Shown one piece after another: positions 35,948 through 62,530 of a DNA stretch of 64,000 nucleotides. The position numbers and the translations under genes are program-made. Numbering within the stretch: position 1 is the first letter of the stretch; each line of letters begins with the position of its first letter. The DNA is taken from positions 2,432,001 to 2,496,000 of the forward strand of contig CBDCDS010000003.1 of assembly GCA_965215365.1 (NCBI GenBank). The letters run 5' to 3'. The notes under the pieces were generated by a model. It had not been told where the DNA came from, made no database searches, and saw only the letters and a program-made list of their open reading frames with translations. This stretch comes from Gammaproteobacteria bacterium (GTDB lineage: Bacteria; Pseudomonadota; Gammaproteobacteria; Eutrophobiales; Eutrophobiaceae).

Positions 35948-36934
35948 TCAGTCTGCTGTTTCAAACAGTTCCAGCTCGTTGCCGTCCGGGTCCAGCACGT
36001 AGATAGACTTGCCGTAAGGGCCGGGGCCGAGTTCCCCTCTGGGAAACTCTGCGCCGGTTTGTTTGAGCTTTTCATACAGGGCTTCGACGTTCCGAACTGC
36101 AAACGCCAAGTGGTCCAGCTGCTTCATGTCGCCGGGGCCGCCGGCGGTCAGCCCCAGTCCTTCCATCGTGGCAATGAACGGACGCCCGTCAGGCAGCGGC
36201 TTGGCATCTACGCGTCGGGTGAAGCCCAGGGTATTCAGGTAAAAATCCATGGCTCTTTCCAGGTCGCTTACCATCAACAGCAGATGATGCACATACACGG
36301 GCTTAGGTTGCAGTTGTTGCTCCACCCACCCCAAGAAGTCCGCTGACTGACAGGTCACCCCCAGATATTGGCGCCATACCTCCCGGGCGCTCTGCTCCCA
36401 GGCCGGATTGACGCCGGAGATACAGTCTTCGATTGCAACCACGTCGAAATCACGCAGGTAGGCCTCCCGCATCGTGGTTTCAACGCAAGCGTTGGCCGTC
36501 AACCCGGTAATGAACAGGGCTTCGACCCCCAGTTGTTCCAGCACCAGTTGCAGGCGCGTTTCATAAAAGCCGCCAAAACGGTGTTTGCGAATCATGTATG
36601 TCGGGTTGGTCACCAGATCTTGCAATTCATCCACGATCTGCGCGTCCCAGCTGCCGGCCAGGGCCGACACGCCCTTGCGTTTGGACGTATGTGATGGAAG
36701 ACGCTTACGCGCCCGTCGGGAGTCGGTGGCAAAGTGTTCCTGCACCGTCCATAACACCGGCATGCCCACCGCATGACAGCGTTCAATGACGGTGCGCAAC
36801 GGTTTGATAACGCTGCCCAGACGCTCGGTATCCAGGCCGGACTGGCCCAGCGTGCCGTCCTGGTGACAAAACGCATTCTGCAAGTCGATGACGAGCAGTG
36901 CCGATTTTTTCAGCTCCAGCAATTCCAGTGACAT
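35948..36934 (-). CDS. Isochorismatase-family cysteine hydrolase fused to a VOC/glyoxalase domain
   Basis: ALLVIDLQNAF, KHRFGGF, TANACVETT (D-K-C triad); C-terminal VHHLLLMVSD...DHLAF...DPDGNELE. Confidence 0.85.
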   Translation of the reverse strand: MSLELLELKKSALLVIDLQNAFCHQDGTLGQSGLDTERLGSVIKPLRTVIERCHAVGMPVLWTVQEHFATDSRRARKRLPSHTSKRKGVSALAGSWDAQIVDELQDLVTNPTYMIRKHRFGGFYETRLQLVLEQLGVEALFITGLTANACVETTMREAYLRDFDVVAIEDCISGVNPAWEQSAREVWRQYLGVTCQSADFLGWVEQQLQPKPVYVHHLLLMVSDLERAMDFYLNTLGFTRRVDAKPLPDGRPFIATMEGLGLTAGGPGDMKQLDHLAFAVRNVEALYEKLKQTGAEFPRGELGPGPYGKSIYVLDPDGNELELFETAD

Positions 36935-36936
36935 GT

Positions 36937-37131
36937 TCAGCCCCCCTTCCGGTCCAATCCGAGCACGCCGGCGCGCGCCCAATCCTCCAGTTCATATTCC
37001 TGGATGATGACATGCAGGCCATCCGGTTTTGCGTCAGCGTGTTCGACCATGGCGTCGGTAATCGCCTTGGCCAGTTTTCGTTTTTGCTCAACACTGCGAC
37101 CTTTCCACATCTGTACGGTTACTACAGGCAT
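36937..37131 (-). CDS. 4-oxalocrotonate tautomerase family protein
   Basis: Catalytic Pro after Met, GRSVEQKRKL, 64 aa. Confidence 0.9.
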   Translation of the reverse strand: MPVVTVQMWKGRSVEQKRKLAKAITDAMVEHADAKPDGLHVIIQEYELEDWARAGVLGLDRKGG

Positions 37132-37149
37132 ATTTAGTCCTCTATATAG

Positions 37150-38589
37150 TCAATTCCCGGCGTCATACAACGTCGTGGTGGTCGGCACGTTTTCATCTGC
37201 AAGGCCGGCGCGGATGACGGCGGCGGCGGCGAGTTCCCGCGCCTTACATTTTATCTCCTGCTCAGCAACGCCGACAACCTTGCCGTCGCGGTACAAGGCA
37301 TTACCGTCCACCCAGGTTTCCCTGATGCTGGCCGTCGAGGCGGAAAATACCAGCGCCTGCAAGGGGTCGTGAAACGGCGTCCATTCAACATGCTCCAGAT
37401 CAAACACAATGAAGTCAGCCTTTTTGCCGATTTCAAGCGACCCGATCTCATCGTCCCACAACAATGCCTTAGCGCCTTCAATCGTGGCCGCGCGCAAGGC
37501 CTGGCGCACCGTTACCACATCCGCTTGCAGACGCGCATCCTTGAACATGCCCGCGCACAGGAACAGCTGGCGCATCAGGTTCATATTCCCGGCTGCGGAA
37601 ACACCATCGGTGCCCAGGGCAACCGTTACGCCGGCGTTGATCAGTTCCGGATATTTGCCGATTGCGGTGGCGCCCTTGCCCAGCTTGAAAGAGGAAGAAG
37701 GACAAAAAGCCACCTTCGTGCCATAACTCGCCAGGGTCTCCACCTCCTCCTCAGCTACGGCTGCGCCATGGGCAATGACTAGGTTGTTGCCCAGCCCGCC
37801 GGCCTGCTCGATACGGGTGATCGGCCAGACTCCGTATTTGTTTTCACAGACCCGCGCCTCTTCGATGCTGGTCGCCAGATGATAAGTGGTGCCCACCCCC
37901 AGCTTTTCGGCCAGCTCCCGGGCGCCCACGTGCAACCCCAGGGTGCACGGCTCCTTGCCTTCGATATTCACCCAGCAACGCACCCGGCCATCGAGGGCAC
38001 CATGATAGGTTTCCACACAGTGCTGTAGTTCACGCAGCGCGGTGGGCGCGTCGGCGAAGAAATGGTGTTTAACCATGCTGTCGGTCCAGCCCCTGGGCCT
38101 GACCTCGGGCGGGTTATCAGCGGCGTGGCGCCCGGTAATCCCGCGTATGCCCGTTTGTTCCATCGCCCGCACGGTAATGCCGGGGTCGTATTGTGAACCC
38201 ATGTCCAAAAAACAGGTGGTGCCACAACGCAACATCTCGGTGATACCCAACAGCGCGCCCCAGTATTCATCCTCGGCACTGATATGCGCATAAAATGGCT
38301 TGGCCCAGTGGAACACCCAGGCGCGGGTATTGAGGTTGTCCGGAAACACCGCCCGCGACAGGGTTTCCGACAGGTGCACATGGGCATCAATAAAACCCGG
38401 ACAAATCCCGTTCAGGGTTCCGTCCCGGACCTGGTCGAAGCCTGCCCGGGCATGTCTTTGTGCAACCTCGGAGGTAGCGCCCAGGTCGATAATTCTGTCA
38501 TCTTCAATGACGATGGCCGCATCACGTATTACGCGGTCGTCCTTATCCACCGTCAGGATGAACTCAAGATGTTCAATAAGCGTTTTCAT
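37150..38589 (-). CDS. Amidohydrolase (Atz/Trz/SsnA deaminase-like)
   Basis: PGFIDAHVH, GTTCFLD, ALGTDG, GSLEIGKKAD; E of the usual HxxE replaced (YHLATS). Confidence 0.85.
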   Translation of the reverse strand: MKTLIEHLEFILTVDKDDRVIRDAAIVIEDDRIIDLGATSEVAQRHARAGFDQVRDGTLNGICPGFIDAHVHLSETLSRAVFPDNLNTRAWVFHWAKPFYAHISAEDEYWGALLGITEMLRCGTTCFLDMGSQYDPGITVRAMEQTGIRGITGRHAADNPPEVRPRGWTDSMVKHHFFADAPTALRELQHCVETYHGALDGRVRCWVNIEGKEPCTLGLHVGARELAEKLGVGTTYHLATSIEEARVCENKYGVWPITRIEQAGGLGNNLVIAHGAAVAEEEVETLASYGTKVAFCPSSSFKLGKGATAIGKYPELINAGVTVALGTDGVSAAGNMNLMRQLFLCAGMFKDARLQADVVTVRQALRAATIEGAKALLWDDEIGSLEIGKKADFIVFDLEHVEWTPFHDPLQALVFSASTASIRETWVDGNALYRDGKVVGVAEQEIKCKARELAAAAVIRAGLADENVPTTTTLYDAGN

Positions 38590-39704
38590 TATTGAACAGC
38601 CAGCAACCGGTCGGTATCGGTGTAGTCGGATAACAGTTCGGCGCCGGTTTCGGTCACCAGTACCATATCCTTGTTCTGCATGCCGAAGCCATGGCCGGTG
38701 TCATAGACCAGTGGCTCTATTCCCAATACCATGCCCGCTACCAACGGCACATCGGAATACATCCCCAGATACGGCTCCTCGTGCAAATGTAGGCCGATGC
38801 CGTGGCCGATGAATTGTATCGGCGGCAAGTTCAGCTTTGCCAGGTGACGGCTGAATGCCTGATAGATTTTTTTGGAACTGGCGCCGGGTTTGATCAGGTC
38901 CAGCACCAGATATTTGCACTCCACCAGGTTTTGCCAGATTTCCTCTGCGTGGCGCGGCGCAGCCTGCACCCGGGCGGTGCGACAAACGCCGGCATGGTAG
39001 CCGTTAATGACCGGAAATATTTCCACCCGGCAGATATCGCCCGGCTCCAGCGTGCGCATGGAAGGCCCGACATTGGGATAGACACTCCTGGGGCCGGTGG
39101 CGACTATCATCAATTTGAAGTCCGCGGCGCCCAGGGTATAAATATGCCTGGTCAACCCTGCGGCGATGTCCATTTCAGTAGCGCCGGCGCTGACCCCCTG
39201 CAACGCCTTGCCGATCGATTCATCGGCGATACGCGCCAGACGCCGCAGCAATTCTATTTCATCCGGGGTCTTGATTTGGCGCAACCGCTGCAGGTCGGTA
39301 TCGGCTGCGACGAAACGGGCCTCAGGCAAAGCCTGACACAAGGCCTGATAGTCATTGGCAAACAGGTAATTCAACTCGGTGCCGACTGTTGCGCGCGCCA
39401 AGCCCTGATCGCGCAACAACTGTGCAAGCACCTGCATGGGTTGCTCGGTAAATTCTCCCCATACCCTGACCTCGGCGCCGTCAACCCGGCTGCTGACCGT
39501 GGTTTCTTCCATATCCACCGCCAGGTAGGCGCAGTTGCCGTCGGCCGTGACCACCACGGCCGCATGGCGCCAGCGCATCAACGGCTGGGACGGGACGACA
39601 AAACCGGATACATAAGCAAAGTTTTCCGGCGACAGACAAACCAGGCCGTCCAGGCCAGAGGCCTGCATGGTTGCCGTCAGTTTTGTTACTATTTCATTAT
39701 GCAT
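38589..39704 (-). CDS. M24 Xaa-Pro peptidase/creatinase-family hydrolase
   Basis: Creatinase-type N-domain, RQIKTPDEI, GHGIGLHLHEEP, GMVLGIEP; several metal ligands substituted. Confidence 0.82.
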   Translation of the reverse strand: MHNEIVTKLTATMQASGLDGLVCLSPENFAYVSGFVVPSQPLMRWRHAAVVVTADGNCAYLAVDMEETTVSSRVDGAEVRVWGEFTEQPMQVLAQLLRDQGLARATVGTELNYLFANDYQALCQALPEARFVAADTDLQRLRQIKTPDEIELLRRLARIADESIGKALQGVSAGATEMDIAAGLTRHIYTLGAADFKLMIVATGPRSVYPNVGPSMRTLEPGDICRVEIFPVINGYHAGVCRTARVQAAPRHAEEIWQNLVECKYLVLDLIKPGASSKKIYQAFSRHLAKLNLPPIQFIGHGIGLHLHEEPYLGMYSDVPLVAGMVLGIEPLVYDTGHGFGMQNKDMVLVTETGAELLSDYTDTDRLLAVQ

Positions 39705-39781
39705 AGCTGTGACCGTTATTCTGTTGCGCGTCAGGGCACCTTTTTTTGAAGGTTAATAGAATTATAATGAATGATCGAAGT

Positions 39782-39793
39782 TTGTAATCACAA
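39782..39793. promoter_or_regulatory. Cluster operator copy 1
   Basis: TTGTAATCACAA upstream of the M24 operon, with minus-strand TATAAT at 39761-39766. Confidence 0.6.
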
Positions 39794-39800
39794 TTTATTG

Positions 39801-40985
39801 TTATGGACTGCATGGCCGACCTTGACGGATAATAATACGTTCATCGGGTCGTCTTGACAGAATGTCATCAAAACTCTGCCCCTTTACCAGCACCATATCG
39901 GCGCTGTCGTTCACGGCCGGCGCCACCTTGCCATCGCACAAGGCCTTGACCAGGTCATCGGTGGCATCGAGTTGCGCGGCCAGCATGGCAATATAGCCGG
40001 CGTCCAGCAAGTCTGCATCGCCATAGGGATAAAAGACATCGCAAACATTATCGCTGGCAATGCGTACGGCAACGCCGGCGGCGAGCAACTCGTGCACGCA
40101 GGCCAGACCGCGTCGTAGCGGCGCGCCCTGCCGGCGGTCTTGCAGGTACAGGTTAGTGGTGGGCAGTACCACCACTTCAATGCTGGCTTGCGCCAGTTTC
40201 TCCAGCAGCCGGTTGCGCGTCCCGGCCTCCAGCACCGACAGCACGCAACCGTGGCTCAGGGTCACGCGTCCCTGGCAGCCGTTGGCGCAGGTGGCGTCAG
40301 CCAGATACTCAATGGAGGCGCGTTCGGCCTCCAGGTGTTCGTCCTGATGCAGGTCGATGGCCGCGTCCTGCTCGACAGCCAGTTCGAGCACGGCGTCAAT
40401 GGCGCGGTGCGGCTGCGGGTAGAGCGACGGCGCCGCGCCGAGCAGCGCGGCGCCGCGCGCCAGGGCTTCCCGGAGCATCGATTTTCCATCGCTGCCGGCG
40501 GGGTCAAGTCGCGACGAGGCAAAGGCAACGACCTCTATGTCCATGTTCGCGCCCATGGCGGCTTTCGCATCCAGGGTACCTTGCACCGCCCTGAAGCGGG
40601 TCTCAGGATCAATATCGGCGTGCGTTCTGAGGCCGGTGGTACCGTGGGAACAGGCTCGCCGAAACAGCTTGAGGGCGTGCGCGCAGTGTTGTTCGACAGT
40701 AAAGTGCCGGAGTAATTCCAACGCCTGGGCCACGGCATGTGCAAACGAAGCAGGTTTTTGTTCGGCCCGCGTGAAGGCCCGGTTGGCGTGGACATGCTTG
40801 TCCACTAGGGGTGGCAGGCACACCCATGCAGCCGGCGTTGCGAGTTCTGTTATTGCTGTTATGGCGCCGTCGGCGATGACAATTTCCAGCGCTTGTTCGG
40901 AACCGGCAAAAGCGACGTTGCGCAGCACGGCAGCGCCATTTTCCAAGGTGCTGACAGGGTTATCGACGGCGCTCACTGTCAGCAT
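39801..40985 (-). CDS. Cytosine/creatinine deaminase-like amidohydrolase
   Basis: DKHVH, HGTTGLRTHAD, DLHQDE, TLSHG, LPTTNLYLQDR, ASDNVCDVFYPYG. Confidence 0.83.
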   Translation of the reverse strand: MLTVSAVDNPVSTLENGAAVLRNVAFAGSEQALEIVIADGAITAITELATPAAWVCLPPLVDKHVHANRAFTRAEQKPASFAHAVAQALELLRHFTVEQHCAHALKLFRRACSHGTTGLRTHADIDPETRFRAVQGTLDAKAAMGANMDIEVVAFASSRLDPAGSDGKSMLREALARGAALLGAAPSLYPQPHRAIDAVLELAVEQDAAIDLHQDEHLEAERASIEYLADATCANGCQGRVTLSHGCVLSVLEAGTRNRLLEKLAQASIEVVVLPTTNLYLQDRRQGAPLRRGLACVHELLAAGVAVRIASDNVCDVFYPYGDADLLDAGYIAMLAAQLDATDDLVKALCDGKVAPAVNDSADMVLVKGQSFDDILSRRPDERIIIRQGRPCSP

Positions 40986-42328
40986 CCGGGGCGCGTGATG
41001 CAGCTGCCGCGTCCGTACTGGTCTTCATCCACGGCCCCGTTCTCATAGACGATACGGCCGTTGGCGACCGTCATAACCGGCCAGCCTTGCAGTTTCATCC
41101 CTTCATAGATGCAGGTGCCGTGGCCGTCGTGGGTCACCTCGCGTTCTTCATCCAGGTCCACCAGTACCAGGTCGGCATCCGAGCCCGGTTCCAGTGAGCC
41201 CTTACGCGGATAGAAACCGAAGCGCTTGGCCGGGCCGTAGGAATTGACCCGCACCAGTTGCTGCAAAGTGAGCCCGCGCCGCAGCACGCCATGGGTGATG
41301 AGCAACGGCAACTCCCAGGGAAAACTGACCACGCCGGGAAACTCGGTCCACAGGTCTTCGCCCTTCTTGGGCAGGAACGGCACGTGGTCGCTGCCGATGG
41401 AATTGACCCGGTCCGCCAGCATCCCGCGCCACAACCATTCCTTTTGTTCGGCATCGCGCAACGGCGGTGAAATCTTCGCCGTCATATCCAGGTCTTCGTC
41501 GTAACAGGTGCGGGTCAGGTAATGCGGGCAGGTTTCCACGGTCACGTCCACCCCTCTGGCCCGCGCCTCCAGCGCCAGCTCCGGGCCGGCGCCCACCGAG
41601 GTATGCACCAGTTGCAGGGAACAACCGGTGCGTTCGGCCAGGAAGATCATGCGTTTGATAGTCTCCACCTCACAGAAGGCGGGGCGCGATTCGGTATAGG
41701 CACCCAAGTCCTGGCGCCCGGAGGCCATCATATCCTTTTTCACCCAGCCGGCAATGGCGGTATTTTCACAATGCACCGAAACTACGCCCTTGGGCAGCCT
41801 GGCTACCTGCAACATGGTGGCATACACCCAGCCGTCATTGGCCGGCACGATACCAATGGGGTTATCCGGCTCGTAGCCGAAATACAGCTTAAAAGACTGC
41901 ACCCCGGTATGTTCGACTATACGCGGAATTTCATGGATGTGTTCTTCGCGCTGTATGCCGAAGTGAAAACCGAAGTCGATGCAGACGTTTTCCTCACCGA
42001 TACGGCGGCGCTCATCGTAAAACGGCAGATAGGACTCCTTTTTGTTACGGATATACAAAAATATGGTGGAAATGCCGCCGCGCGCCGCTTGCGCAGTCTC
42101 GGTGCGCATGTCCTCGTCATAAGGATACGCCACCCCCAAGTGACAATGGGTATCTATCACGCCCGGCAACAGGCAGCGGCCTTCGGCATCGATCACGCGC
42201 CGCGCCGGCGGCAGGGCATCATTGACGCCGGCCATGAGTATCTTACCCTCCTTGACCGCGATGCCGCCGAAGAATTCGCCGGTGTGATCGACTACCCGGG
42301 CATTGCGAATAACCAGCTCAGCTTTCAT
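40979..42328 (-). CDS. Cyclic amidohydrolase (dihydroorotase/allantoinase/hydantoinase family)
   Basis: LPGVIDTHCH, SFKLY, VHCEN, VETCPHYL, KISPPLR, GSDH; start at MKAELVI. Confidence 0.88.
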   Translation of the reverse strand: MKAELVIRNARVVDHTGEFFGGIAVKEGKILMAGVNDALPPARRVIDAEGRCLLPGVIDTHCHLGVAYPYDEDMRTETAQAARGGISTIFLYIRNKKESYLPFYDERRRIGEENVCIDFGFHFGIQREEHIHEIPRIVEHTGVQSFKLYFGYEPDNPIGIVPANDGWVYATMLQVARLPKGVVSVHCENTAIAGWVKKDMMASGRQDLGAYTESRPAFCEVETIKRMIFLAERTGCSLQLVHTSVGAGPELALEARARGVDVTVETCPHYLTRTCYDEDLDMTAKISPPLRDAEQKEWLWRGMLADRVNSIGSDHVPFLPKKGEDLWTEFPGVVSFPWELPLLITHGVLRRGLTLQQLVRVNSYGPAKRFGFYPRKGSLEPGSDADLVLVDLDEEREVTHDGHGTCIYEGMKLQGWPVMTVANGRIVYENGAVDEDQYGRGSCITRPGC

Positions 42329-43233: not shown

Positions 43234-43249
43234 TGTATCGTTATCTCTT

Positions 43250-45483: not shown

Positions 45484-45494
45484 GATTCTCTCTT

Positions 45495-45664
45495 AGTAAC
45501 CTCTAAAAATGCCTTCCGTGGCATTTTTGCTGTGTAAATTTACCCTTCCCTGCCTGCCTGTTCACGTCCCTGTGGCTGGATACCGGCCAATCCTTGGCCA
45601 GCATGACGAACTTGCATGCCAGCGGGGTGTGCAGCGTCCTGAGCATGGGGGTTTAGAGGCGCCC
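45495..45664. mobile_element. MITE-like element (~170 bp)
   Basis: Terminal inverted AACCTCTAAA / TTTAGAGGCGCCC; internal hairpins GCCTTCCGTGGC, CACGTCCCTGTG, GGCCAATCCTTGGCC; first ~100 bp similar to 50276-50374. Confidence 0.7.
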
Positions 45665-53910: not shown

Positions 53911-53939
53911 TCGTCTGCCCCCCCCTGCAGATATGCAGG

Positions 53940-55231: not shown

Positions 55232-55286
55232 CAAGATACGCAAAAAACCAGCGCCGGGGCGCCGGTTTCAAGTCCACGGCAACTCG

Positions 55287-57689
55287 TTAGAAGCTGTAAG
55301 AAATACGGCCCATAATCTGTCGTGGCCGCACGAATTCTTCACTGGTCTGGGCAGTGGAGAAGTTGTTGGTCCAGCGTGAGTTGACGGCATCTTCATCGGT
55401 CAGGTTATAGACCAACAGACCTACGGTGATATTTTCATAGCTGGCAGGCGTCAGATAGACACTCAGGTTAAGCAGGTCATACGCTTTGGTAGTATCCAAC
55501 GAACGACTATTGTTGTCTGTTTCCGTGGTGGAAAACACGCGTGAAGCGAAGCTGTCCCGATGGATATACGACAACCTGGAATTGAACTCGCCCAACGCCG
55601 TGTTGACCGTGTAGTTCAAGGCTATGTTGGCAGTGAAGTCCGGGGCCTTGGGGAGAGGGTTGCCTCGGATGTTCTGGCCTAAAGCCGAGGTGCAATCTCT
55701 GAATTTTTGATTGTCCGCGGGTGCAAAGTTAACATTTTCTCCTCTCAAGAACCCGGGAACAGCGCAATCTCTCCATTTTGTTACATTATCCAAAGCATTT
55801 TGATCCGCAGTGATTTCGGTATCCAAGAGGGTGAATCCGGCATCCAGCGTAAAGTTTTCATTCAGCAGTGCCTGTAATTCCAGCTCCGCACCGAGCACTT
55901 CTGCTTCATTCAAATTACCGACACCGCCGGTAAACGTCTGATTACCACCAGAGGCAAGAAATTGCATCCCGCGGTAATCATAATAAAACGCAGCTACGCT
56001 TAAGTTCAGTCGATTGTCTATAAACTGCCCTTTGGCGCCGATCTCAAAAGCATCCACTTTTTCCGGCCCGGAAGCGTCTGTTATAAATTCATCATTAATA
56101 TCCCCGGTGAGATTGCCGGTGGCTGGCTTGAATCCACGAGTCCAGGAGAAATAAGCCATAAGGTCATCGGTCACATCATATTCCAGCCCGGCCTTGCCGG
56201 TGACCTCTTTACCTTTGCTGGGATCAAAAGAAGGGGTAGCTGGCGGCATAGCGGAGAAGCCGCCGTTGTATAATGTCAGGGTATCGTCTGTGTAACGCAC
56301 GCCACCGGTGAGACGCAAATTGTCCATCAGAGAGTAGGTGACCTGACCATAAAGAGACCAGGATTCCCGTTCTGAATACTGGTTGATGCAAAAATCGCGG
56401 TCGGCAATACGTTGCCCGGGGCCAAATCCACACTCTCCAGGCGACATATCCCCTCCTTTCCAGGTAGTCGCTCCCGGGTCATACATGCCATTACCGTTCA
56501 GATCGCGCACGGAGTCGTACCAAACCTCGTTTTCGGAGTACAGATAGAATCCGCCAACTACCCAGTCAACCCTGCCCTCGGTATTGGAGACAATGTTGAT
56601 TTCCTGCGTCCAGGTCTTGCTGTCACGCGTGGAGACGCTCTCTGCAGCTAACCCGGCAAACGGCAAATATCCATCCGCTTGATATGGCAGAGTGTCGTCG
56701 ATGCCATACGCTCCTTTATCCGCATCAAGATAGTTTGACTGATCGAATTCAAGATATCCGGTGATAGACTTCATTGTGACACTACCGGCATCATACTCTA
56801 GGGTCAAAGAGTACAGCTGACTCTCGGAGTCATAGTAACCGGGCACGTCCGAGGTGACATCCCGGCTGTCGCCGCTGGGGTCGTTTACGTGGCGTTGCGC
56901 GCGGTCACCCACGTCATTGATGGAGAATACCGTGGCACCGAAAATAGCGGAAAAATCATCGACAGGCTGCCATAGCAGCTTGCCCTGGAACTGGAAATTG
57001 TCCGCCTCATCAAGGTCGTAGCCGTCATTGACATTGCCGTTGATGTCCTCAGCTCCGCCGACAATCTCGGCGAAGCCGTTGTGGTTGAGATAGGTGACCG
57101 AGGCCCGGGCCGCCAGCGTCTCGCCCAGGGGCACGTTGATCGTAGCGCGCGGCTGCACCAGACTGTAGTTGCCAAAAGCAATATCAGCCTTGCCACTGAA
57201 CTCCCCCAGCTCCGGGATATTGTTCACCACGTTAATAGCGCCGCCGGTGGAGTTCTGCCCGAACAAGGTGCCTTGCGGGCCGCGCAAGACCTCAATACGG
57301 TTCACGTCGATAAACTCTAGGTTGGTGGCATTCGGGTCGGCGACAAACACCCCGTCAATATGGAATGCCACAGACGGATATGCATTAATGTTCTGGGTAG
57401 ACTCAAAACCGATGCCACGTATGGCCACCGCTCTGGAAAAACCCTCGTTCCTAGCAACCACCAGCCCCGGCGCCATGGCGCTCATGTCGGCCAGACTCCG
57501 AATGTTATCGTTATCGAGCGTCTCTGCCGTCAGTGCGGTAATGGAAATCGGCACATCCAACAGGGATTCTTCACGTTTCTGGGCGGTGACTACTATCTCT
57601 TCTATCCCGGCTTGAGCCAACAGCGCGCCGGGGGACATCAAAAAGGCCAGCAGGGCCAGGAACAATGGGGTTTTGGTTGAATATTGCAT
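55287..57689 (-). CDS. TonB-dependent receptor
   Basis: IEEIVVTAQKRE, RIEVLRGPQGTLFGQN, C-terminal PRQIMGRISYSF. Confidence 0.93.
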   Translation of the reverse strand: MQYSTKTPLFLALLAFLMSPGALLAQAGIEEIVVTAQKREESLLDVPISITALTAETLDNDNIRSLADMSAMAPGLVVARNEGFSRAVAIRGIGFESTQNINAYPSVAFHIDGVFVADPNATNLEFIDVNRIEVLRGPQGTLFGQNSTGGAINVVNNIPELGEFSGKADIAFGNYSLVQPRATINVPLGETLAARASVTYLNHNGFAEIVGGAEDINGNVNDGYDLDEADNFQFQGKLLWQPVDDFSAIFGATVFSINDVGDRAQRHVNDPSGDSRDVTSDVPGYYDSESQLYSLTLEYDAGSVTMKSITGYLEFDQSNYLDADKGAYGIDDTLPYQADGYLPFAGLAAESVSTRDSKTWTQEINIVSNTEGRVDWVVGGFYLYSENEVWYDSVRDLNGNGMYDPGATTWKGGDMSPGECGFGPGQRIADRDFCINQYSERESWSLYGQVTYSLMDNLRLTGGVRYTDDTLTLYNGGFSAMPPATPSFDPSKGKEVTGKAGLEYDVTDDLMAYFSWTRGFKPATGNLTGDINDEFITDASGPEKVDAFEIGAKGQFIDNRLNLSVAAFYYDYRGMQFLASGGNQTFTGGVGNLNEAEVLGAELELQALLNENFTLDAGFTLLDTEITADQNALDNVTKWRDCAVPGFLRGENVNFAPADNQKFRDCTSALGQNIRGNPLPKAPDFTANIALNYTVNTALGEFNSRLSYIHRDSFASRVFSTTETDNNSRSLDTTKAYDLLNLSVYLTPASYENITVGLLVYNLTDEDAVNSRWTNNFSTAQTSEEFVRPRQIMGRISYSF

Positions 57690-57811: not shown

Positions 57812-57840
57812 ATTGTGATCACATTTAGTGATTGTGTCAA
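57812..57840 (-). promoter_or_regulatory. Sigma70 promoter of the TonB receptor overlapped by operator copy 4
   Basis: Minus strand TTGACA (57835-57840)-17 nt-CACAAT (57812-57817); perfect TGTGATCACA at 57814-57823. Confidence 0.7.
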
Positions 57841-57913: not shown

Positions 57914-58441
57914 CTAACCGACTTCCTCGTCGGAAAAACGCAGGCACAAAAATACGATGATCAACACCGTGGCGTAGTTCAGTGAGTCGCCCTGAAAAAA
58001 CAGCAGGTCTTCGTTTTTCCAAGACAGCAGCCAGTCGCCGCCGACGGTGAAAAAGATAAAGCAGTAAATAAACACACCAAACATACAGGCCAAGCAGGCA
58101 ATATGGCTGTATTGACGGAATTCGATAAAAGTACTGCGGCAGTGGCGCGCCATGCCTGCGACTGCATACGCGGCTATCAATCCCATACACAATTCCAGGC
58201 TGGTGACGAAACCGTAGGCCAGGTGTGCGAGAAATGTTATGTCGAGTGCCCGCCAACCCTGCGTAACGCCAGAGACATTATCGGTCATGGACAATAACGG
58301 CCACACCACCCGTTGCATGGTGTCATGCCAATGGGTGACATTGTTGATAAAGGCAAACAAGCCCAAGCAAGCGGGGATAAGCGCCAAACCTGTCTGCAGG
58401 AGCCGGTTGCAGTAAACGAGTCTGTTTTCAGCCATGGTCAA
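57914..58441 (-). CDS. DUF2165 family membrane protein (divergent paralog)
   Basis: INNVTHW, LLSM, WRAL, VGGDWLLSWK parallel the 53940 protein. Confidence 0.7.
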   Translation of the reverse strand: MTMAENRLVYCNRLLQTGLALIPACLGLFAFINNVTHWHDTMQRVVWPLLSMTDNVSGVTQGWRALDITFLAHLAYGFVTSLELCMGLIAAYAVAGMARHCRSTFIEFRQYSHIACLACMFGVFIYCFIFFTVGGDWLLSWKNEDLLFFQGDSLNYATVLIIVFLCLRFSDEEVG

Positions 58442-58447
58442 ACTCCA

Positions 58448-58873
58448 TTATATTGATTTTTTACGAGAAATAACTTCCAGGGTAATGCCGTCAGGGTCGC
58501 GAAAAAAAAAGTAGAAGTAAGAGGGGTTGTTATCAAAAATTTCTGACAGGTTAACGACCCCGTGCGCAGCTAGGTGTTGGTGGAAAGCCTGTGGATCTGC
58601 CACCTCGAAGGCGATATGTTTGGTCCCCACGACCTGGAAATCAGTGAGGTTGTCTTTACAAAAATCCGGTAACGGCCGGGCCTGCTCATGGCAGAATAAT
58701 TCCAGGTAGTTGTCACCCTTGTTAATGAATACGATCTCCAGGGAGAGTTCCGGCACCGACACGCGGCTGGACTCCTTAAAGCCCAATACCCGCTCATAAA
58801 ATGCCATGGCGCGCGGCAGATTACTCACCGACAGGGCACCGTGGTGTAGTTTGAATGCCGGTAGTTCGCTCAT
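58448..58873 (-). CDS. VOC/glyoxalase family protein
   Basis: HHGALSVSNL...FYERVLGF, YLELF, KHIAF, FFRDPDGITLE. Confidence 0.9.
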   Translation of the reverse strand: MSELPAFKLHHGALSVSNLPRAMAFYERVLGFKESSRVSVPELSLEIVFINKGDNYLELFCHEQARPLPDFCKDNLTDFQVVGTKHIAFEVADPQAFHQHLAAHGVVNLSEIFDNNPSYFYFFFRDPDGITLEVISRKKSI

Positions 58874-58880: not shown

Positions 58881-60389
58881 TCAAACCAGCAGTTGGTACG
58901 GGTGTTCTACCCGTTCCTTGAAGAGCTGCAGAAAACGGGCGCCGGTGGCGCCGTCGATGACACGATGATCGCAGGACAAAGTGGCGGTGAGCAGGGTGGC
59001 GGTCAGGTCCCCGTCGGCGCTAAGGATGCGGCGTGGCTCGGCGGCGCCGACTGCGAGGATCGCAGCCTGCGGCGGATTGATGATCGCATCGAATGACTTG
59101 ATACCGAACATACCTAGGTTTGATACGGTGAAGGTGCCGCCTTCAAATTCTGCACGTGTCAACGACCTGGCCCTGGCGCGTTCACTCAACCCGGTTATTT
59201 CACGGGAAATCTCCAGCACACTTTTCTTGTTGGCCGCGCGCACAATCGGCGTCAACAACCCCTCGTCCAGGGCCACTGCGACGGCTACGTGGGCGTCGTG
59301 GTAACGGCGTATCACCTTGCCGTCAAACTGGACATTCATGGCCGGCGCTTTCACCAGCGTCATGGCGACCGCCTTGACCAGCAGATCGTTGATGGAAATT
59401 TTTCCGTGTGCTTCATCCCGATTCAGATCTGCGCGCAAGCTGAGCAGCGGGTCGATATTCACCTCCACCACCAGACGGAAATGCGGCGCAGTCTGTTTTG
59501 ATTCGGTCAGGCGCGCGGCAATGGCGCGCCGCATTGGTGTCAGCGGCTGCTCAGCAAAGGCGGCTTCGTAGTCCTCGGCAGATAACGCCTCGTCTGGCAT
59601 CGGCGGCGGCGCCGACGACCTGGCAGCGATGGCATTTTCCACATCGGATTTGGTCACGCGCCCGCGCGCACCGGTCGGCGTCACCCCGGCCAGGTCAAGG
59701 CCCGCTGCCGTTGCCAACCTGCGCGCCGATGGCGTGGTGCGGATGTGAGACTCGTCCGGCTTCTCTACCGGCGCAGCCGGAGGCGCGTCGGCAGCAGGCA
59801 ACTGCCCGCCGGCGGCCGTTAGCGCGCGTTCAACATCCTGTTTCGACACACGGCTGCGGCGGCCACTGCCGGCCACCTTGCTGAGGTTGATGCCAAGACG
59901 TGCGGCCAGTTTGCGGGCCAGATGGGTAGCCGGAATTTCAGTGTCATCGGCAGTGCCGCACAGGCTATCGGGAATGATGCCGGCCGCTGCAGACGCGCCT
60001 TGTTCCGCCTCAGTGGCTGCTTCCGAAGCAATCACATCCGCCGCCGGGGCAGCCCCCGGACTGGTGTCGGCAGCCTCCATCCCGCCATCCTGCGTCGGTA
60101 CAAAGCCGGCAATAAATTCTTCGATTTGCTGCCCGCCAACGGCCTCGTCGGCGAGCACGCACAACAAGGCGCCGACCGGCAAATCGACCTGCGGCGCGGC
60201 CAGTCCCCCCCGGATCACGCCGGCGCCGGGCGCTTCCAGCTCGGTGGTGAGCTTGCTGGTCTCGAGGTCGGCGATGATGTCGCCCGGTGCCACCCGGGTG
60301 CCGGTTGCCACGCGCCACTTCGCCACCATGCCCTCGGTCATGGACAAGCCCAGCTTGGGCATTACTATTGGTTGAATTATCTCAGCCAT
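58881..60389 (-). CDS. Dihydrolipoamide acyltransferase E2 (AcoC-like)
   Basis: MPKLGLSMTEG, lipoyl ETSK, two E3-binding repeats, GTFTVSNLG, DHRVIDG. Confidence 0.9.
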   Translation of the reverse strand: MAEIIQPIVMPKLGLSMTEGMVAKWRVATGTRVAPGDIIADLETSKLTTELEAPGAGVIRGGLAAPQVDLPVGALLCVLADEAVGGQQIEEFIAGFVPTQDGGMEAADTSPGAAPAADVIASEAATEAEQGASAAAGIIPDSLCGTADDTEIPATHLARKLAARLGINLSKVAGSGRRSRVSKQDVERALTAAGGQLPAADAPPAAPVEKPDESHIRTTPSARRLATAAGLDLAGVTPTGARGRVTKSDVENAIAARSSAPPPMPDEALSAEDYEAAFAEQPLTPMRRAIAARLTESKQTAPHFRLVVEVNIDPLLSLRADLNRDEAHGKISINDLLVKAVAMTLVKAPAMNVQFDGKVIRRYHDAHVAVAVALDEGLLTPIVRAANKKSVLEISREITGLSERARARSLTRAEFEGGTFTVSNLGMFGIKSFDAIINPPQAAILAVGAAEPRRILSADGDLTATLLTATLSCDHRVIDGATGARFLQLFKERVEHPYQLLV

Positions 60390-60392: not shown

Positions 60393-61400
60393 TCAGACTC
60401 CCAGCGCTTCTTTGATGCCTTGCTTGATCCGTTCCACACTCGGAATATAGAGCTCCTCCAGCACCGGCGCAAACGGTATCGTAGTATGCGGCGGCGTAAC
60501 CAGTTTGACCGGCGCGCGCAACGCCGACTGCGCCTGCACCGCCGCCAGGGCGGCAATATCCGCAGCAAAGCCGCAGCGCGGGTAGCCTTCATCGACCACC
60601 ACAAGATGACCGGTCTCGTCGATGGATTCACAGATGGACTCTTCATCCAGCGGCGAGGTGCAGCGCAGGTCGATGACGGTACAGTGAATATTCTCTGCCT
60701 GCAATTCGTCCGCGGCCTGATTGCACAGGTTGACCATGCGCCCCAGCGAGCAGACGGTAATGTCCTCACCATCCCGGCTGTAATGGGCCTCGCCCAGCGG
60801 GATGGTGTAACTTTCATCCGGCGCCTCGCCCCGGTCATCGTACATGAATTTGTGTTCCATATACATCACCGGGTCATCGTCGCGGATCGCCTCGATCAAC
60901 AGGCCTTTGGCTTCATAGGGGTTGGAGGGCATGACCACCTTAAGGCCGGGAATGTGGGTAAACAGGCCGTGCAAGGTCTGGCTGTGTTGGGCTGCGGCAT
61001 TGAAACCGCCGCCGCACTGCGTGCGTATTACCAGCGGCACTTTGGCCTGCCCGCCCAGCATATAGCGCAGCTTGGCGGCCTGATTCATGATCTGATCGAA
61101 ACAGACGCCGGCAAAGTCACAGAACATCAGTTCGGCCACCGGGCGCAGGCCGGTTGCGGCGGCGCCGATGGCGGCACCGATATAGGCGGTTTCACTGATG
61201 GGCGTATCGATAACCCGCCGGGCGCCAAACTCGCCCAGTAAACCCTTGGTGACACCCATGACACCGCCCCAGGCATCCTCTTCACCCTCACCGCCGGTGC
61301 CGCCGGCAATGTCTTCCCCGATCAGGAACACGTTCGGGTCGCGGCGCATTTCCATGCGTAACGCCTCATTGATGGCCTGGCGGAAGGACTTTTCGCTCAT
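60393..61400 (-). CDS. ThDP-dependent dehydrogenase E1 beta (AcoB-like)
   Basis: DTPISE, RPVAELMF.DF, DQIMNQAAK, AAQHSQ. Confidence 0.92.
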   Translation of the reverse strand: MSEKSFRQAINEALRMEMRRDPNVFLIGEDIAGGTGGEGEEDAWGGVMGVTKGLLGEFGARRVIDTPISETAYIGAAIGAAATGLRPVAELMFCDFAGVCFDQIMNQAAKLRYMLGGQAKVPLVIRTQCGGGFNAAAQHSQTLHGLFTHIPGLKVVMPSNPYEAKGLLIEAIRDDDPVMYMEHKFMYDDRGEAPDESYTIPLGEAHYSRDGEDITVCSLGRMVNLCNQAADELQAENIHCTVIDLRCTSPLDEESICESIDETGHLVVVDEGYPRCGFAADIAALAAVQAQSALRAPVKLVTPPHTTIPFAPVLEELYIPSVERIKQGIKEALGV

Positions 61401-61457
61401 GGTTGTCGGCTCATGGTGTCTGGCTCAGGGTTGCTCACTGTTACGGTGCGTGCGCGC

Positions 61458-62438
61458 TCAATATGAGACATAAACGTCGGCAAGCAGGTCCTCAGCCGTC
61501 GGCAACGGCGCCTGGCGGGCGTGTTCCAGCGCATCGTCCAGTTGCCGGATGACCTCCTCATCCACCTGTTCCAATGCCTCAGCGGTCACCAGCCCGGCAG
61601 CGACAGCCTTATCCCGGAAAATCATCAGGCAGTCTTTCTTATCACGTATCCGCTCCACCTCACCCTGGGGCCGGTAGCTGGCAGCGTCTCCTTCAAAATG
61701 ACCGTAGTAGCGGGACAGGTTGATATGTAAAAATGCCGGTCCCTTGCCGGCCCTGACATCTGCAATGACGGCGCCGGCGGTTTGGTACATCTGGAAAAAA
61801 TCATGACCATCAAGCGAGTGGGTTGCCAGTCCGAAGCCCCGCGCGCGCGCCGGCGCGTCCCCACCGATGGCCCAACTGGAAGGAGTCGCCTCGCCGTAGC
61901 CGTTGTCTTCCATGGCAAAGATCATCGGCAAATTCAGCACCTTGGCGAGATTCATGGTTTCCATGGTGGCGCCCTCGTTTAAGGCGCCGTCACCGAAGAA
62001 GGCTACAGCTACCCGATCGCTGCCGAGCACTTTCGACTTCAGCGCCGCGCCCGCGGCCAGCGGCACGCCGCCGCCGACGATACCGTTGGCACCGATCATG
62101 CCCTTACTCAGGTCAGCGAGGTGCATGGAACCGCCCTTGCCGGCGCACAGGCCGCTACGCTTGGCATAAATCTCATCCATCATGGCGACCACATCACACC
62201 CTTTGGCCAGACTGTGGCCGTGACCCCGGTGGGTGCTGGCGATATGATCCTGCTCGTTCAGGTGCAGACATATTCCCACCGCGCTGGCCTCCTGGCCGGC
62301 AGACAAGTGAATAAAGCCGGGAATCTCACCCTTGCTGTTATTCAGGTGGATGCGGTCTTCAAACTCGCGGATAGTGCGCATCGTGCGATAAGCCGCCAGC
62401 GCAGCTTCGGGCGACAGTTTAATGGCAGGGTCAGTCAT
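61458..62438 (-). CDS. ThDP-dependent dehydrogenase E1 alpha (AcoA-like)
   Basis: IPGFIHL..GQEA, STHRGHGH, GKGGSMH, FFGDGA...EDNGY, RYYGHFEGD. Confidence 0.92.
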   Translation of the reverse strand: MTDPAIKLSPEAALAAYRTMRTIREFEDRIHLNNSKGEIPGFIHLSAGQEASAVGICLHLNEQDHIASTHRGHGHSLAKGCDVVAMMDEIYAKRSGLCAGKGGSMHLADLSKGMIGANGIVGGGVPLAAGAALKSKVLGSDRVAVAFFGDGALNEGATMETMNLAKVLNLPMIFAMEDNGYGEATPSSWAIGGDAPARARGFGLATHSLDGHDFFQMYQTAGAVIADVRAGKGPAFLHINLSRYYGHFEGDAASYRPQGEVERIRDKKDCLMIFRDKAVAAGLVTAEALEQVDEEVIRQLDDALEHARQAPLPTAEDLLADVYVSY

Positions 62439-62501
62439 GCTTAACAGGTTATACGGGTGCAATACAAGATATTCGGCGACGCGCGCCAAGACTTCGGACG
62501 C

Positions 62502-62530
62502 AGTATATTGTGATCATGATTTGTAGTCAA
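62502..62530 (-). promoter_or_regulatory. Sigma70 promoter of the E1/E2 operon with operator copy 5 in the spacer
   Basis: Minus strand TTGACT (62525-62530)-17 nt-TATACT (62502-62507); ATTGTGATCA at 62507-62516. Confidence 0.7.

Follow-up and report, generated by a model that had tools for sequence, protein, structure and literature searches.

A mobile gene island of ~27 kb in a gammaproteobacterium, probably for the uptake and breakdown of an N-rich heterocycle

Do the closely packed genes at positions 35948-62530 of a 64,000-nucleotide stretch of gammaproteobacterial DNA (assembly GCA_965215365.1, contig CBDCDS010000003.1, positions 2,432,001 to 2,496,000; hereafter the window) form one pathway, and for which compound? 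A first-pass annotation of the window had read them as an undescribed ~26 kb pathway for the uptake and degradation of an N-heterocyclic compound. We consider it probable that the interval from ~35.86 to ~62.76 kb is one accessory genomic island and a single regulon of 5 or 6 transcription units under a GntR(FCD) protein, which most likely imports an N-rich heterocycle with a cyclic ureide or amidine ring, most plausibly nucleobase-like, and degrades it to ammonia, CO2 or urea and C2/C3 oxo-acids. On the sequence comparisons given below, the island of ~27 kb is real, horizontally mobile and, judged by its common operator, co-regulated, and it is probably catabolic. Its genes are named as in Table 1. 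The minus-strand row from 35948 to 47810 consists, in order, of P450, SDR285, MLE, OpDH, DpaA-like, HYD, AHcd, M24, AH479, 4-OT and IsoVOC. After the P450 end of this row come hicBA, CobW and u263, 1.4 kb of repeat and insertion-sequence (IS) remnants, the permease, an operon of receptor, SDR263, DUF2165 and the GntR/FCD regulator, and an operon of E1alpha (E1a), E1beta (E1b), E2, VOC141 and a second DUF2165 gene. Every gene family that the first-pass annotation had named is present, the 64-aa 4-OT at 36937-37131 included.

Close relatives define the limits of the island. In three congeners in which the DpaA-like protein had no match at E≤1e-50 (G404, G414 and G403), homology with the window ends with MtdB (~35.86 kb) and restarts at the start of the next TonB receptor (62.76-62.84 kb). 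The distance between these two genes is 264, 369 and 280 bp, respectively, as compared to ~26.9 kb in the window. Because homology breaks at these two points, the interval delimited in the first pass is a natural insertion/deletion unit. In a fourth congener, G405, the same interval measures 27 kb and carries the genes from IsoVOC to E1a in the order of the window (IsoVOC, 4-OT, AH479, M24, AHcd, HYD, DpaA, OpDH, MLE, SDR285, P450, CobW, permease, GntR, DUF2165, SDR263, receptor, DUF2165, VOC, E2, E1b, E1a). The u263 gene, which falls across the boundary of the two pieces of G405 compared, was found in the locus that overlaps this region (L003). Within the genus, gain or loss affects the entire block, in line with its earlier description as a single ~26 kb set. 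The DpaA-like gene was found in 5 of the 18 other genomes of the genus and in none of the 12 other genomes of the class; at E≤1e-50, none of 400 further genomes in a sample of the phylum had it.

A profile search with the DpaA-like protein gave at least 42 loci from species-representative genomes. The locus counts given here and in Table 1 refer to the 42 listed loci and are tblastn matches that cover no less than half of the query and pass identity floors. The core genes (MLE, OpDH, DpaA-like, HYD, M24, AH479, 4-OT and IsoVOC) are syntenic across these loci in at least five phyla, with Gamma-, Alpha- and Betaproteobacteria, Bacteroidota, Actinomycetota and Acidobacteriota among the carriers, and the order kept is MLE-OpDH-DpaA-HYD-(AHcd)-M24-AH479-4OT-IsoVOC. 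Co-occurrence in other genomes had been named in the first pass as one check of its reading; the core passes it, and the full set recurs in G405. OpDH was found in 39 loci, HYD in 37 (59-96% identity), MLE in 35, 4-OT in 33, IsoVOC in 30, AH479 in 27 (60-95% identity), M24 in 26, CobW in 18, AHcd in 17 (26-88% identity), u263 in 17, an aldehyde dehydrogenase (ALDH) in 14 and a hydroxypyruvate-isomerase-like TIM barrel in 8. In 28 of the 30 loci with both genes, 4-OT immediately precedes IsoVOC, and E1a and E1b each adjoin the core in 8 loci, Bacteroidota and Actinomycetota included.

A Saprospiraceae locus (L011) holds SDR, GntR, permease, DUF2165, ALDH, u263, CobW, MLE, OpDH, DpaA, HYD, AHcd, M24, AH479, IsoVOC, E1a, E1b and E2 contiguously. 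HYD is 84% identical to the Saprospiraceae copy and 76-79% identical to several gammaproteobacterial copies, which argues for horizontal spread. Megaplasmids carry the cluster as well, in 10 records from Aminobacter, 3 from Shinella and 1 from Phyllobacterium. The RefSeq annotation of these Hyphomicrobiales plasmids lists MLE, M24, an amidohydrolase, OpDH, DpsA, a second amidohydrolase, a "resolvase" or hypothetical protein, 2-hydroxymuconate tautomerase, isochorismatase, cytosine deaminase, GntR, RidA, a GTP-binding protein, an ABC transporter and PntAB; the "resolvase" or hypothetical gene sits where u263 stands elsewhere, a match by position only. PntAB adjoins the cluster in three annotated Hyphomicrobiales plasmid regions, which suggests a demand for NADPH. 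The Aminobacter aminovorans cluster also holds D-amino-acid dehydrogenase, malate synthase G and a heme-binding protein.

The units of the island share an operator-like sequence. The perfect palindrome TTGTGATCACAA has six matches with at most 2 mismatches in the window, as compared to 1.76 expected, and none of 100 shuffles reached six, a control that covered the window only. Five of the matches stand upstream of M24, MLE, the permease, the TonB receptor and E1a, and the claim of one shared upstream motif is thus substantiated. The sixth match, at 58527 inside VOC141, may be due to chance. Genome-wide (2.73 Mb) there are 42 such matches, six of them in these 26.8 kb versus ~0.36 expected (Poisson 2e-6). 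The genome's only two sites with at most 1 mismatch are both in the island, and 5 of the 11 intergenic matches in the genome are the M24, MLE, permease, receptor and E1a sites. The MtdB-receptor spacer of the island-less congeners held no operator site like TTGTGATCATGA.

Related loci carry the palindrome at equivalent places. With at most 1 mismatch, it was found in 16 of the 42 loci at 29 sites, 27 of which are intergenic by crude gene calls. They come from Gamma-, Alpha- and Betaproteobacteria and one Saprospiraceae metagenome-assembled genome (MAG), and the gene that follows them is MLE, M24, CobW/u263, ALDH or that of a TonB receptor. The palindrome occupies the same AHcd-M24 position in L001, L002, L003, L011, L016 and L041, and sites equivalent to the MLE operator, between SDR and MLE or between CobW and MLE, were found in L002-L004, L014, L015 and L040. 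GntR/FCD operators are GT-N-AC palindromes. The GntR protein of the island has the GntR helix-turn-helix and FCD domains, the palindrome stands before the units that it would regulate, and this protein is presumed to be the binder of TTGTGATCACAA. We also considered a repetitive-extragenic-palindrome-like hairpin, AAGGTCACCTCTATTA..TAGAGGTGACCTT, which stands at 47859 and 57748, upstream of P450 and the TonB receptor. It occurs at 38 places in the genome (at most 2 mismatches, both strands, 2.73 Mb), and AAGGTCACCTCTATTA..TAGAGG was rejected as a second cluster-specific regulatory motif on account of these 38 matches.

In the core row, M24 and AH479 have base 38589 in common, the overlap is 4 nt between MLE and OpDH and 7 nt between HYD and AHcd, and 2 nt lie between the 4-OT stop and the IsoVOC start. 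The overlapping stop and start codons reported in the first pass are therefore found at three junctions, with 4-OT and IsoVOC abutting. Catalytic residues are intact in HYD, AHcd, MLE and the isochorismatase domain with its VOC partner. HYD keeps the binuclear centre (H78, H80, K164, H203, H259 and D331) in 34 sequences. The HxH, HxxE, His and Asp set of AHcd (H64, H66, H213, E216, H245 and D312) is at least 95% conserved in 16 sequences. MLE has the KxK motif, the D/E/D ligands and the second Lys (K169, K171, D199, E226, D249 and K276) conserved in 25 sequences. In IsoVOC, the Asp-Lys-Cys triad (D33, K133 and C166, counted from a TTG start) and the H/H/E set of the VOC domain are at least 95% conserved in 22 orthologues. 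The best PDB match of IsoVOC is RutB (8bkd, 1.5e-21), and others are an N-carbamoylsarcosine-amidase-related protein and biuret hydrolase. OpDH has CENDH (1bg6, 1.2e-42), an N-carboxyethyl-amino-acid dehydrogenase, as its only PDB match, and the best match of MLE is 2p88, which we take to be an N-succinyl-Arg/Lys racemase.

All matches to named NCBIfam equivalogs are below the curated cut-offs, and the sole model passed is a subfamily-level one for E1beta. The best match of IsoVOC is RutB (90.6 vs. a cut-off of 378), followed by BiuH (84.6 vs. 370), so it belongs to neither equivalog. HYD scores best with the allantoinase model PRK06189 (285 vs. 631), and reaches 263 vs. 393 with D-hydantoinase/dihydropyrimidinase and 257 vs. 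358 with AllB. On these scores HYD is a member of the cyclic-amidohydrolase superfamily in no named subfamily. MLE reaches 233 bits with the muconate cycloisomerase subfamily model (cut-off 335), and the best matches of AH479 all stay below cut-off. The DpaA-like protein is below both DpaA equivalog cut-offs (NF006162, 198.6 vs. 261; second model, 169.6 vs. 319.65). The gene set was not found in the full-text literature searched. These results agree with the first-pass statement that the set is not a recognised characterised pathway, as the equivalog models for rut, allantoinase, dihydropyrimidinase, DoeA and DpaA are all missed.

Comparison with the Rut, reductive pyrimidine/hyu, allantoin, ectoine and creatinine routes gave single families in common, and by family content the island is a member of none of them. 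The creatinine route runs through N-methylhydantoin and N-carbamoylsarcosine and has a creatine-creatinase branch. The island resembles it in having a deaminase type, a hydantoin-ring hydrolase, an isochorismatase-family carbamoyl amidase and an M24 protein like the metal-free amidinohydrolase. However, the known N-methylhydantoinase is ATP-dependent and of another family, and the island is without sarcosine oxidase and carries six more conserved enzymes besides transporters of the nucleobase type. With the Rut system (RutA-G) it has in common a RutB-like ureido amidohydrolase, an NCS2-type permease, a semialdehyde-level SDR or ALDH and a small protein that would handle enamines or imines (4-OT in the island and RidA in Hyphomicrobiales; RutC is of the RidA family). 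Unlike Rut, it has no RutA/RutF oxygenase pair, and its ring would be opened by a hydantoinase-type metalloenzyme. The hyu and reductive pyrimidine systems likewise combine a cyclic amidohydrolase, a racemase and an N-carbamoyl hydrolase, with NAD(P)H-dependent ring saturation before hydrolysis. In the island, however, the racemase belongs to the enolase superfamily instead of the Asp/Glu-racemase type, the carbamoylase is an isochorismatase-type protein and not a nitrilase or M20 enzyme, and the reductases are OpDH and the DpaA-like protein, not the flavin/FeS dihydropyrimidine dehydrogenase (DPD). Genes of the canonical purine/allantoin route, namely those for the xanthine-dehydrogenase type, OHCU decarboxylase and ureidoglycolate lyase, lie outside the island.

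The DpaA-like protein resembles DpaA/SpoVFA (PDB 2rir and 3d4o) in its DpaA_N and Rossmann domains with a conserved GxGxxG motif. It differs in that its hosts are not spore formers, its gene always adjoins that of an opine dehydrogenase, and no DpaB-like flavoprotein was seen in the island, the gene-order maps or the annotated plasmid clusters. A role as dipicolinate synthase subunit was rejected because of the missing DpaB partner and the equivalog scores.

The closest published logic, in our analysis, is that of the lumichrome (vitamin B2) pathway of the lum operon in Nocardioides simplex. In the parts of that report used here (Sinha et al. 2025, PMC12746152), a P450 acts first, and the fused pyrimidinedione ring is then taken off by three hydrolytic reactions, namely ring opening (LumH), urea hydrolysis (LumI, 24 kDa) and imidamide hydrolysis (LumM, 52 kDa); a thiamin diphosphate (TPP)-dependent heterocycle decarboxylase (LumK/L) next acts on the heteroaryl carboxylate. 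Later steps involve xanthine-oxidase-type, Rieske and catechol dioxygenase enzymes and a cobalt-dependent ~40-kDa hydrolase, which the authors discuss together with the cobalt-dependent prolidase and methionine aminopeptidase (MetAP). The operon also has extra alcohol/aldehyde oxidases, an extradiol dioxygenase and transport genes. By enzyme type, the P450 and SDR, HYD, Iso domain, AH479 (479 aa), E1/E2, VOC and M24 (371 aa) of the island are similar to this series. Compared with lum as described there, the island has no xanthine-oxidase-type LumJ, Rieske LumABCD or aldolase, its P450 is a plain 420-aa enzyme and not a self-sufficient 81-kDa LumU, an E1alpha/beta+E2 complex stands in place of the 20+23-kDa LumK/L, and DpaA-like, OpDH, MLE, 4-OT, AHcd and CobW-u263 are added. 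A Pfam search of the island found none of the LumJ, LumABCD and LumK/L families. The same report mentions a Pseudomonas RF route from the 1960s, in which the flavin C-ring is removed first and which has no known genes; because of this route we keep a flavin, lumazine or pterin reading open. The pterin/lumazine cluster I of Cupriavidus sp. LA-1 (Doi et al. 2025, PMC12391406) leads via xanthine and, in the portion of that account considered here, uses a molybdenum lumazine dehydrogenase and a prenyl-FMN decarboxylase. It is similar in that a purine-like bicyclic base is degraded, a deaminase acts first and an amidohydrolase-signature enzyme takes part, whereas neither the molybdenum dehydrogenase type nor the prenyl-FMN decarboxylase type is in the island.

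What, then, would the island do? Breakdown is favoured as the direction because of the five hydrolases, the GntR/FCD regulator, the alternative uptake systems, and the glyoxylate/hydroxypyruvate-level genes recruited in some versions. Attached to the core is either an AzgA-like permease together with a TonB receptor or an ABC system whose binding protein is of the NMT1/THI5 type, and these three kinds of transporter favour a planar, nucleobase-like solute. In the proposed sequence, uptake would occur through the TonB receptor and the AzgA/NCS2-like permease, or through the NMT1-type ABC system in other lineages. In this lineage only, P450 and SDR285 would oxidise a side chain or ring. The canonical AHcd may deaminate an exocyclic amino or imino group, and the NAD(P) enzymes OpDH and DpaA-like may saturate a C=N bond before hydrolysis or cleave C-N bonds of secondary amines oxidatively later. 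The binuclear-metal HYD would open the cyclic ureide ring hydrolytically. The ureido group would then be removed by the Cys-hydrolase domain resembling RutB and biuret hydrolase, while 4-OT (or RidA) would deal with an enamine/imine tautomer and the VOC domain fused to the hydrolase would perform a further metal-dependent step. The atypical AH479 and the metal-poor, creatinase-like M24 may hydrolyse an amidine or amide, MLE may epimerise or cycloisomerise a carboxylate intermediate, and the dedicated E1/E2 could carry out the thiamin-dependent (oxidative) decarboxylation of an oxo or imino acid.

As to the substrate, a fused pyrimidinedione (pteridine, lumazine, flavin-derived or oxopurine-like) is our tentative first candidate. 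A monocyclic creatinine-, hydantoin- or pyrimidine-like compound is possible at best, and a modified purine is unlikely, as is a compound of some other kind. A more specific proposal, that the island is a molybdenum-independent hydrolytic-reductive route in which the pyrimidine ring is removed first from a fused pyrimidinedione (pterin, lumazine or flavin-derived base), we regard as doubtful. If it is true, the lone DpaA-like protein and the opine dehydrogenase would be heterocycle imine reductases or C-N cleaving dehydrogenases, the E1/E2 would decarboxylate a heteroaryl alpha-imino acid, and a COG0523 GTPase would have a dedicated beta-helix partner, all of which would be unprecedented.

Several observations weigh against the reading of the island as an uptake and degradation pathway for a nucleobase-like heterocycle, or limit it. 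The HxxE motif of AH479 reads HLAT, as compared to HLAE in 3hpa and HIHE in 4f0r, so that the catalytic Glu of the cog0402 family is replaced by Thr. The first-pass label of a deaminase-like amidohydrolase therefore stands for the family (PF01979, 6e-51) and fails for the active site. In M24, the five metal-ligand positions of prolidase read E, G, H, E and K, as compared to D, D, H, E and E in the alignment to 5cdl, and three of the five ligands are lost. From this alignment M24 is unlikely to be a dinuclear peptidase and, like creatinase (1chm, 5.6e-17), probably has no dinuclear metal centre; creatinase is a metal-free amidinohydrolase. In u263, H60 is the only invariant His in 13 sequences. 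The activities assigned to AH479, M24 and u263 are uncertain because the catalytic Glu, three of five metal ligands and the 2-His-1-carboxylate triad, respectively, are not kept.

Five accessory genes (P450, SDR285, TonB receptor, VOC141 and second DUF2165) lack conservation beyond close relatives. Outside the genus, P450 and SDR285 were found only in nine related gammaproteobacterial loci among those listed, the receptor has only distant matches (26-33% identity in 4 of 42 loci, adjoining the cluster in L012-L015), and VOC141 and the second DUF2165 have none in the 42 loci. A TonB receptor is unexpected for a nucleobase-sized solute. The palindrome was not found in actinobacterial loci at up to 1 mismatch, and Rfam at its gathering threshold gave no riboswitch in the clusters of the window, L011, L020, L024 and L038. 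Pathways of aromatic ring cleavage, too, typically contain VOC, 4-OT, MLE and ALDH proteins, and the substrate may be carbocyclic in part. Ordinary purines are probably not the substrate, because the genome has three MoCoBD proteins (C3, 2.16-2.27 Mb), OHCU decarboxylase (2.52 Mb) and ureidoglycolate lyase (0.18 Mb) elsewhere; ordinary purine catabolism was accordingly rejected as the function of the island. The locus counts are lower bounds because many loci are cut by contig ends, and they are biased to clusters that contain the DpaA-like gene because all were recovered with one query. Taken with these points, the first-pass reading is supported as to co-occurrence and novelty, the activities of AH479 and M24 are weakened, and the purine-, pterin- or pyrimidine-like class is something that we, too, infer.

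In the strongest competing view, the substrate of the island is a guanidino or ureido amino acid without an aromatic ring, of the creatinine/hydantoin/opine type; a 5-substituted glycocyamidine and an N-carboxyalkyl-guanidine are examples. Here a deiminase, hydantoinase, N-carbamoyl-amino-acid racemase (MLE), carbamoylase (Iso), creatinase-like amidinohydrolase (M24) and opine-type dehydrogenases would act in turn and release glyoxylate or pyruvate. Four core families (AHcd, hydantoinase, Iso domain and metal-poor M24) have precedents in creatine and creatinine metabolism, the nearest structure of MLE is the presumed racemase 2p88, OpDH has the N-carboxyethyl-amino-acid dehydrogenase as its only PDB relative, and glyoxylate-handling genes lie inside the Aminobacter cluster. 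The transporters, however, indicate planar bases, by their adenine/guanine/hypoxanthine permease names and the NMT1/THI5-type binding protein. Creatinine has no stereocentre and needs far fewer enzymes, and Pfam found neither a sarcosine oxidase nor an ATP-dependent N-methylhydantoinase in the island. We hold this explanation to be improbable. It is very unlikely that the island is a variant of a characterised pathway (purine/allantoin, Rut, reductive pyrimidine, ectoine, lum or the Cupriavidus pterin/lumazine route), as might be suggested by the allantoinase and RutB models being the best NCBIfam matches of HYD and the Iso domain, and by the enzyme types in common with lum as reported in the sections used here (P450, several amidases, a TPP enzyme, an extradiol dioxygenase and a ~40-kDa hydrolase). 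Against it, lum clusters are reported only from soil bacteria in those sections (PMC12746152). The equivalog scores given above fall short, as do DoeA (74-78 vs. 575-613) and DpsA (199 vs. 261), and by Pfam the island is without RutA/RutF, DPD, allantoicase, a xanthine-oxidase-type or Rieske enzyme and UbiD decarboxylase, while the canonical purine genes are elsewhere in the genome.

We also asked whether the region could be a mosaic of independent neighbours, namely an operon of N-compound hydrolases, a zinc-starvation CobW/TonB module and an acetoin/pyruvate dehydrogenase. CobW with TonB receptors is reminiscent of Zur-type modules, the gene after the next receptor encodes GTP cyclohydrolase I, E2, VOC141, the island's receptor and the second DUF2165 stand rarely or never beside the core in other phyla, and hicBA and the IS remnants mark a reshuffled region. 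However, one operator precedes units of all three supposed modules, the whole block is gained and lost together within the genus, and L011 has E1/E2, permease, CobW and core contiguous. CobW/u263 adjoin the core in 17-18, and E1a/E1b in 8, of the 42 loci. A mosaic is therefore highly improbable. Least credible of all is a biosynthetic role, in which the cluster would make an opine-type metallophore or some other natural product with an N-heterocycle and the receptor would take it up again. Opine dehydrogenases make staphylopine-type metallophores, and a TonB receptor and a COG0523 GTPase are at hand; yet Pfam found no nicotianamine-synthase-like enzyme, ATP-grasp, nonribosomal peptide synthetase (NRPS) or exporter gene in the island, and the five hydrolases, the repressor-type GntR/FCD regulator, the uptake permeases and binding proteins and the glyoxylate genes indicate breakdown. 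Degradation of an imported N-rich heterocycle remains our preferred reading.

Two proteins of the island may form a metal-handling pair. The CobW gene of the window has lost its 5' end: the reading frame runs on from the hicA stop into the P-loop codons, ahead of which there is no ATG, GTG or TTG, and both in the window and in L001, where the open reading frame (ORF) likewise begins after the P-loop, this end is replaced by hicBA. Translation may start at a non-canonical codon, or the product may start without a Walker A motif from a GTG at 48391. In 11 CobW orthologues, GFLGSGKTT and CxCC are invariant, as in COG0523 proteins. Among the listed loci hicBA was found only in L001 (hicB 95%), and it is absent from G405. 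For u263, neither Pfam (even at E≤1) nor NCBIfam gave a match. Its AlphaFold model (13-row alignment; predicted local distance difference test, pLDDT, 79; predicted TM-score, pTM, 0.82) has Foldseek matches to ThoJ, PhyH, SnoN, CytC3 and EctD (E 5e-8 to 1e-4, TM ~0.5). Because a single His is invariant, u263 appears to have no dioxygenase facial triad. We rejected it as a canonical Fe(II)/2-oxoglutarate (PhyH-type) dioxygenase, since it has the double-stranded beta-helix fold without the HxD/E...H triad, and the PhyH-like label of the first pass holds for the fold and does not extend to the oxygenase triad.

CobW and u263 are fused in one polypeptide of 546-584 aa in three alphaproteobacterial MAG loci (L020, L021 and L022). 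Prediction of the CobW-u263 complex gave a score of 0.82, as compared to 0.00 for the best of 3 controls; at least 84% of contacts agree between runs and the partner pLDDT is at least 83. In the calibration of this score, 58 of 80 solved complexes came up to the mark, as did 2 of 110 mismatched pairs; these counts hold only roughly because our own alignments were used. By this modelling u263 is a candidate partner of the CobW GTPase, and the two proteins probably load metal into one of the hydrolases or form an auxiliary metalloenzyme. Clients of COG0523 proteins are scarce; in the part of a 2024 review (PMC11672702) consulted, only CobW and Nha3 are named with known clients.

The permease has no Pfam or NCBIfam match. 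NCBI lists its close homologues as "NCS2 family permease" and JGI lists them as "adenine/guanine/hypoxanthine permease" or AGZA family, and the nearest Atlas clusters, at 0.99, agree with its earlier designation as NCS2-like. It was found in 4 of the 42 loci; other lineages carry the ABC transporter with the NMT1/THI5-type binding protein. A separate AceE (1483 bits) is encoded elsewhere in the genome, so the island's E1/E2 of the thiamin-dependent 2-oxoacid-dehydrogenase type is additional to the housekeeping one. P450, which has no redox partner gene in the island, was found in 8 of the 42 loci, all of them gammaproteobacterial MAGs.

Table 1. Genes and operator sites of the island, in window coordinates
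Feature	Position	Strand	Support and occurrence
IsoVOC, isochorismatase-like Cys-hydrolase fused to VOC	35948-36934	-	328 aa, true ATG at 36934; PF00857 2.9e-37, PF00903 6e-15
4-OT family tautomerase	36937-37131	-	64 aa, Pro after initiator Met; PF01361 1.6e-18
AH479, TRZ/ATZ (cog0402)-like amidohydrolase, atypical active site	37150-38589	-	479 aa; PF01979 6e-51
M24 / Creatinase_N hydrolase	38589-39704	-	371 aa; Pfam
Operator TTGTAATCACAA	39782-39793		78 nt upstream of M24 start
AHcd, cytosine/creatinine-deaminase-like amidohydrolase	39801-40985	-	NCBIfam PRK07583 193 bits (cut-off 403)
HYD, hydantoinase/allantoinase/dihydropyrimidinase-like cyclic amidohydrolase	40979-42379	-	PDB 1gkr 2.7e-62
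DpaA-like NAD(P)-binding protein	42325-43233	-	PF16924 (DpaA_N) 1e-18; PDB 2rir 7e-33
OpDH, opine-dehydrogenase family	43250-44329	-	PF02317 5.7e-35
MLE, enolase superfamily, MLE subgroup (MR_MLE)	44326-45483	-	Pfam; PDB 2p88 6.6e-55
Operator region, two overlapping palindromes TATTGATCACAATGTGTGATCAATATA	45718-45745		upstream of MLE
SDR285, lineage-specific front-end SDR	45755-46612	-	Pfam; 7/42 loci
Cytochrome P450, lineage-specific	46548-47810	-	420 aa; PF00067 2.9e-27
hicB-hicA toxin-antitoxin pair, insertion outside the pathway	47913-48324	+	PF15919; PF07927 9e-16
CobW, COG0523/CobW-type GTPase	48325-49353	+	PF02492, PF07683
u263, PhyH-like double-stranded beta-helix protein	49379-50170	+	263 aa; predicted fold
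Operator TTGTGATCAGGA	51545-51556		65 nt upstream of permease
AzgA/NCS2-like inner-membrane permease	51621-53210	+	529 aa; homologue names, Atlas
GntR/FCD regulator, presumed binder of the palindrome	53185-54054	-	PF00392, PF07729; 13/42 loci
DUF2165 small membrane protein	53940-54440	-	PF09933 5.8e-56; 7/42 loci
SDR263	54452-55243	-	Pfam; orthologues in L003 (80%), L011 (55%), L016 (52%)
TonB-dependent outer-membrane receptor	55287-57689	-	Pfam; 77% orthologue in G405
Operator TTGTGATCACAT	57813-57824		124 nt upstream of receptor; present in G405 too
Second DUF2165 protein	57914-58441	-	PF09933 2.6e-18; orthologue only in G405
VOC141, stand-alone VOC protein	58448-58873	-	PF00903 5.7e-19; orthologue only in G405
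E2	58881-60389	-	Pfam, NCBIfam; 1/42 loci
E1beta	60393-61400	-	Pfam; NCBIfam subfamily-level model 332.6 bits vs. 321
E1alpha	61458-62489	-	Pfam, NCBIfam
Operator TTGTGATCATGA	62508-62519		19 nt upstream of E1a

Between u263 and the permease, at 50.2-51.6 kb, lie 1.4 kb with lower G+C, a run of 16 C, unconserved ORFs and IS and repeat remnants, which are probably mobile-element debris. The 228-aa ORF at 50284-50970 and the 159-aa ORF at 50551-51030 gave no family match, and the latter has no orthologue in the 42 loci. A repeat of ~100 nt (89% identity) stands at 45496-45597, upstream of MLE, and at 50277-50374, after u263. Elsewhere in the window, two 1132-nt copies, inverted and 100% complementary, at 10640-11771 and 17827-18958 flank ~6 kb. 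Each encodes a 348-aa transposase (HTH_32, rve and IS481-type leucine-zipper matches), and the pair may be a composite transposon; 63-73-nt IS ends similar to these copies recur at 50372-50444. In other loci, a 477-aa ORF (c25) beside AH479 in four actinobacterial loci, with no Pfam match and no similarity to the permease, may be a shadow ORF, and the clusters c15, c27 and c31 are probably antisense shadow ORFs of crude gene calling.

A methylene-tetrahydromethanopterin (H4MPT) dehydrogenase gene (Mpt_N, 1.3e-32) and an FTCD_C-family cyclohydrolase-like gene at 34265-35853 adjoin the island and indicate that the host has C1-transfer genes; both are kept in congeners with and without the island. 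On the other side, a second TonB receptor (814 aa) runs from 62699 past the window end (L046 699-3742), with GTP cyclohydrolase I 54 nt after it. This pair is kept in island-less congeners and is divergent from E1a, with the intergenic region in common. A 5_ureB_sRNA match of Rfam at 23843-24124 (minus strand; 106.5 bits vs. a gathering score of 40) lies antisense in a 567-aa ORF at 23691-25394 (plus strand). This suggests a urease operon ~10 kb from the island, which could use any released urea. The 146-aa ORF at 33506-33946 (minus strand) matches only the first 107 of 345 positions of an EcoRI-type adenine methylase model and is probably a truncated remnant.

The island is built from known superfamilies, and such a gene set is without description in the literature searched. 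A set of ~12 to 24 genes, syntenic in at least five phyla and spread horizontally, marks a considerable gap in what is known of N-compound turnover. It is directly testable because operator and regulator are defined and because there are cultured carriers, among them Aminobacter aminovorans KCTC 2477 (pAA01), Shinella sp. HZN7 (pShin-03), Phyllobacterium zundukense Tri-48, Arthrobacter sp. 35W, Amycolatopsis jejuensis and Leucobacter zeae. The new enzymology that it offers comprises a DpaA-like protein in hosts that do not sporulate, a TRZ/ATZ hydrolase lacking the catalytic Glu, an M24 hydrolase poor in metal ligands and an isochorismatase-VOC fusion coupled to 4-OT. It also includes a COG0523 GTPase with a candidate partner, u263, in a family for which clients are scarce.

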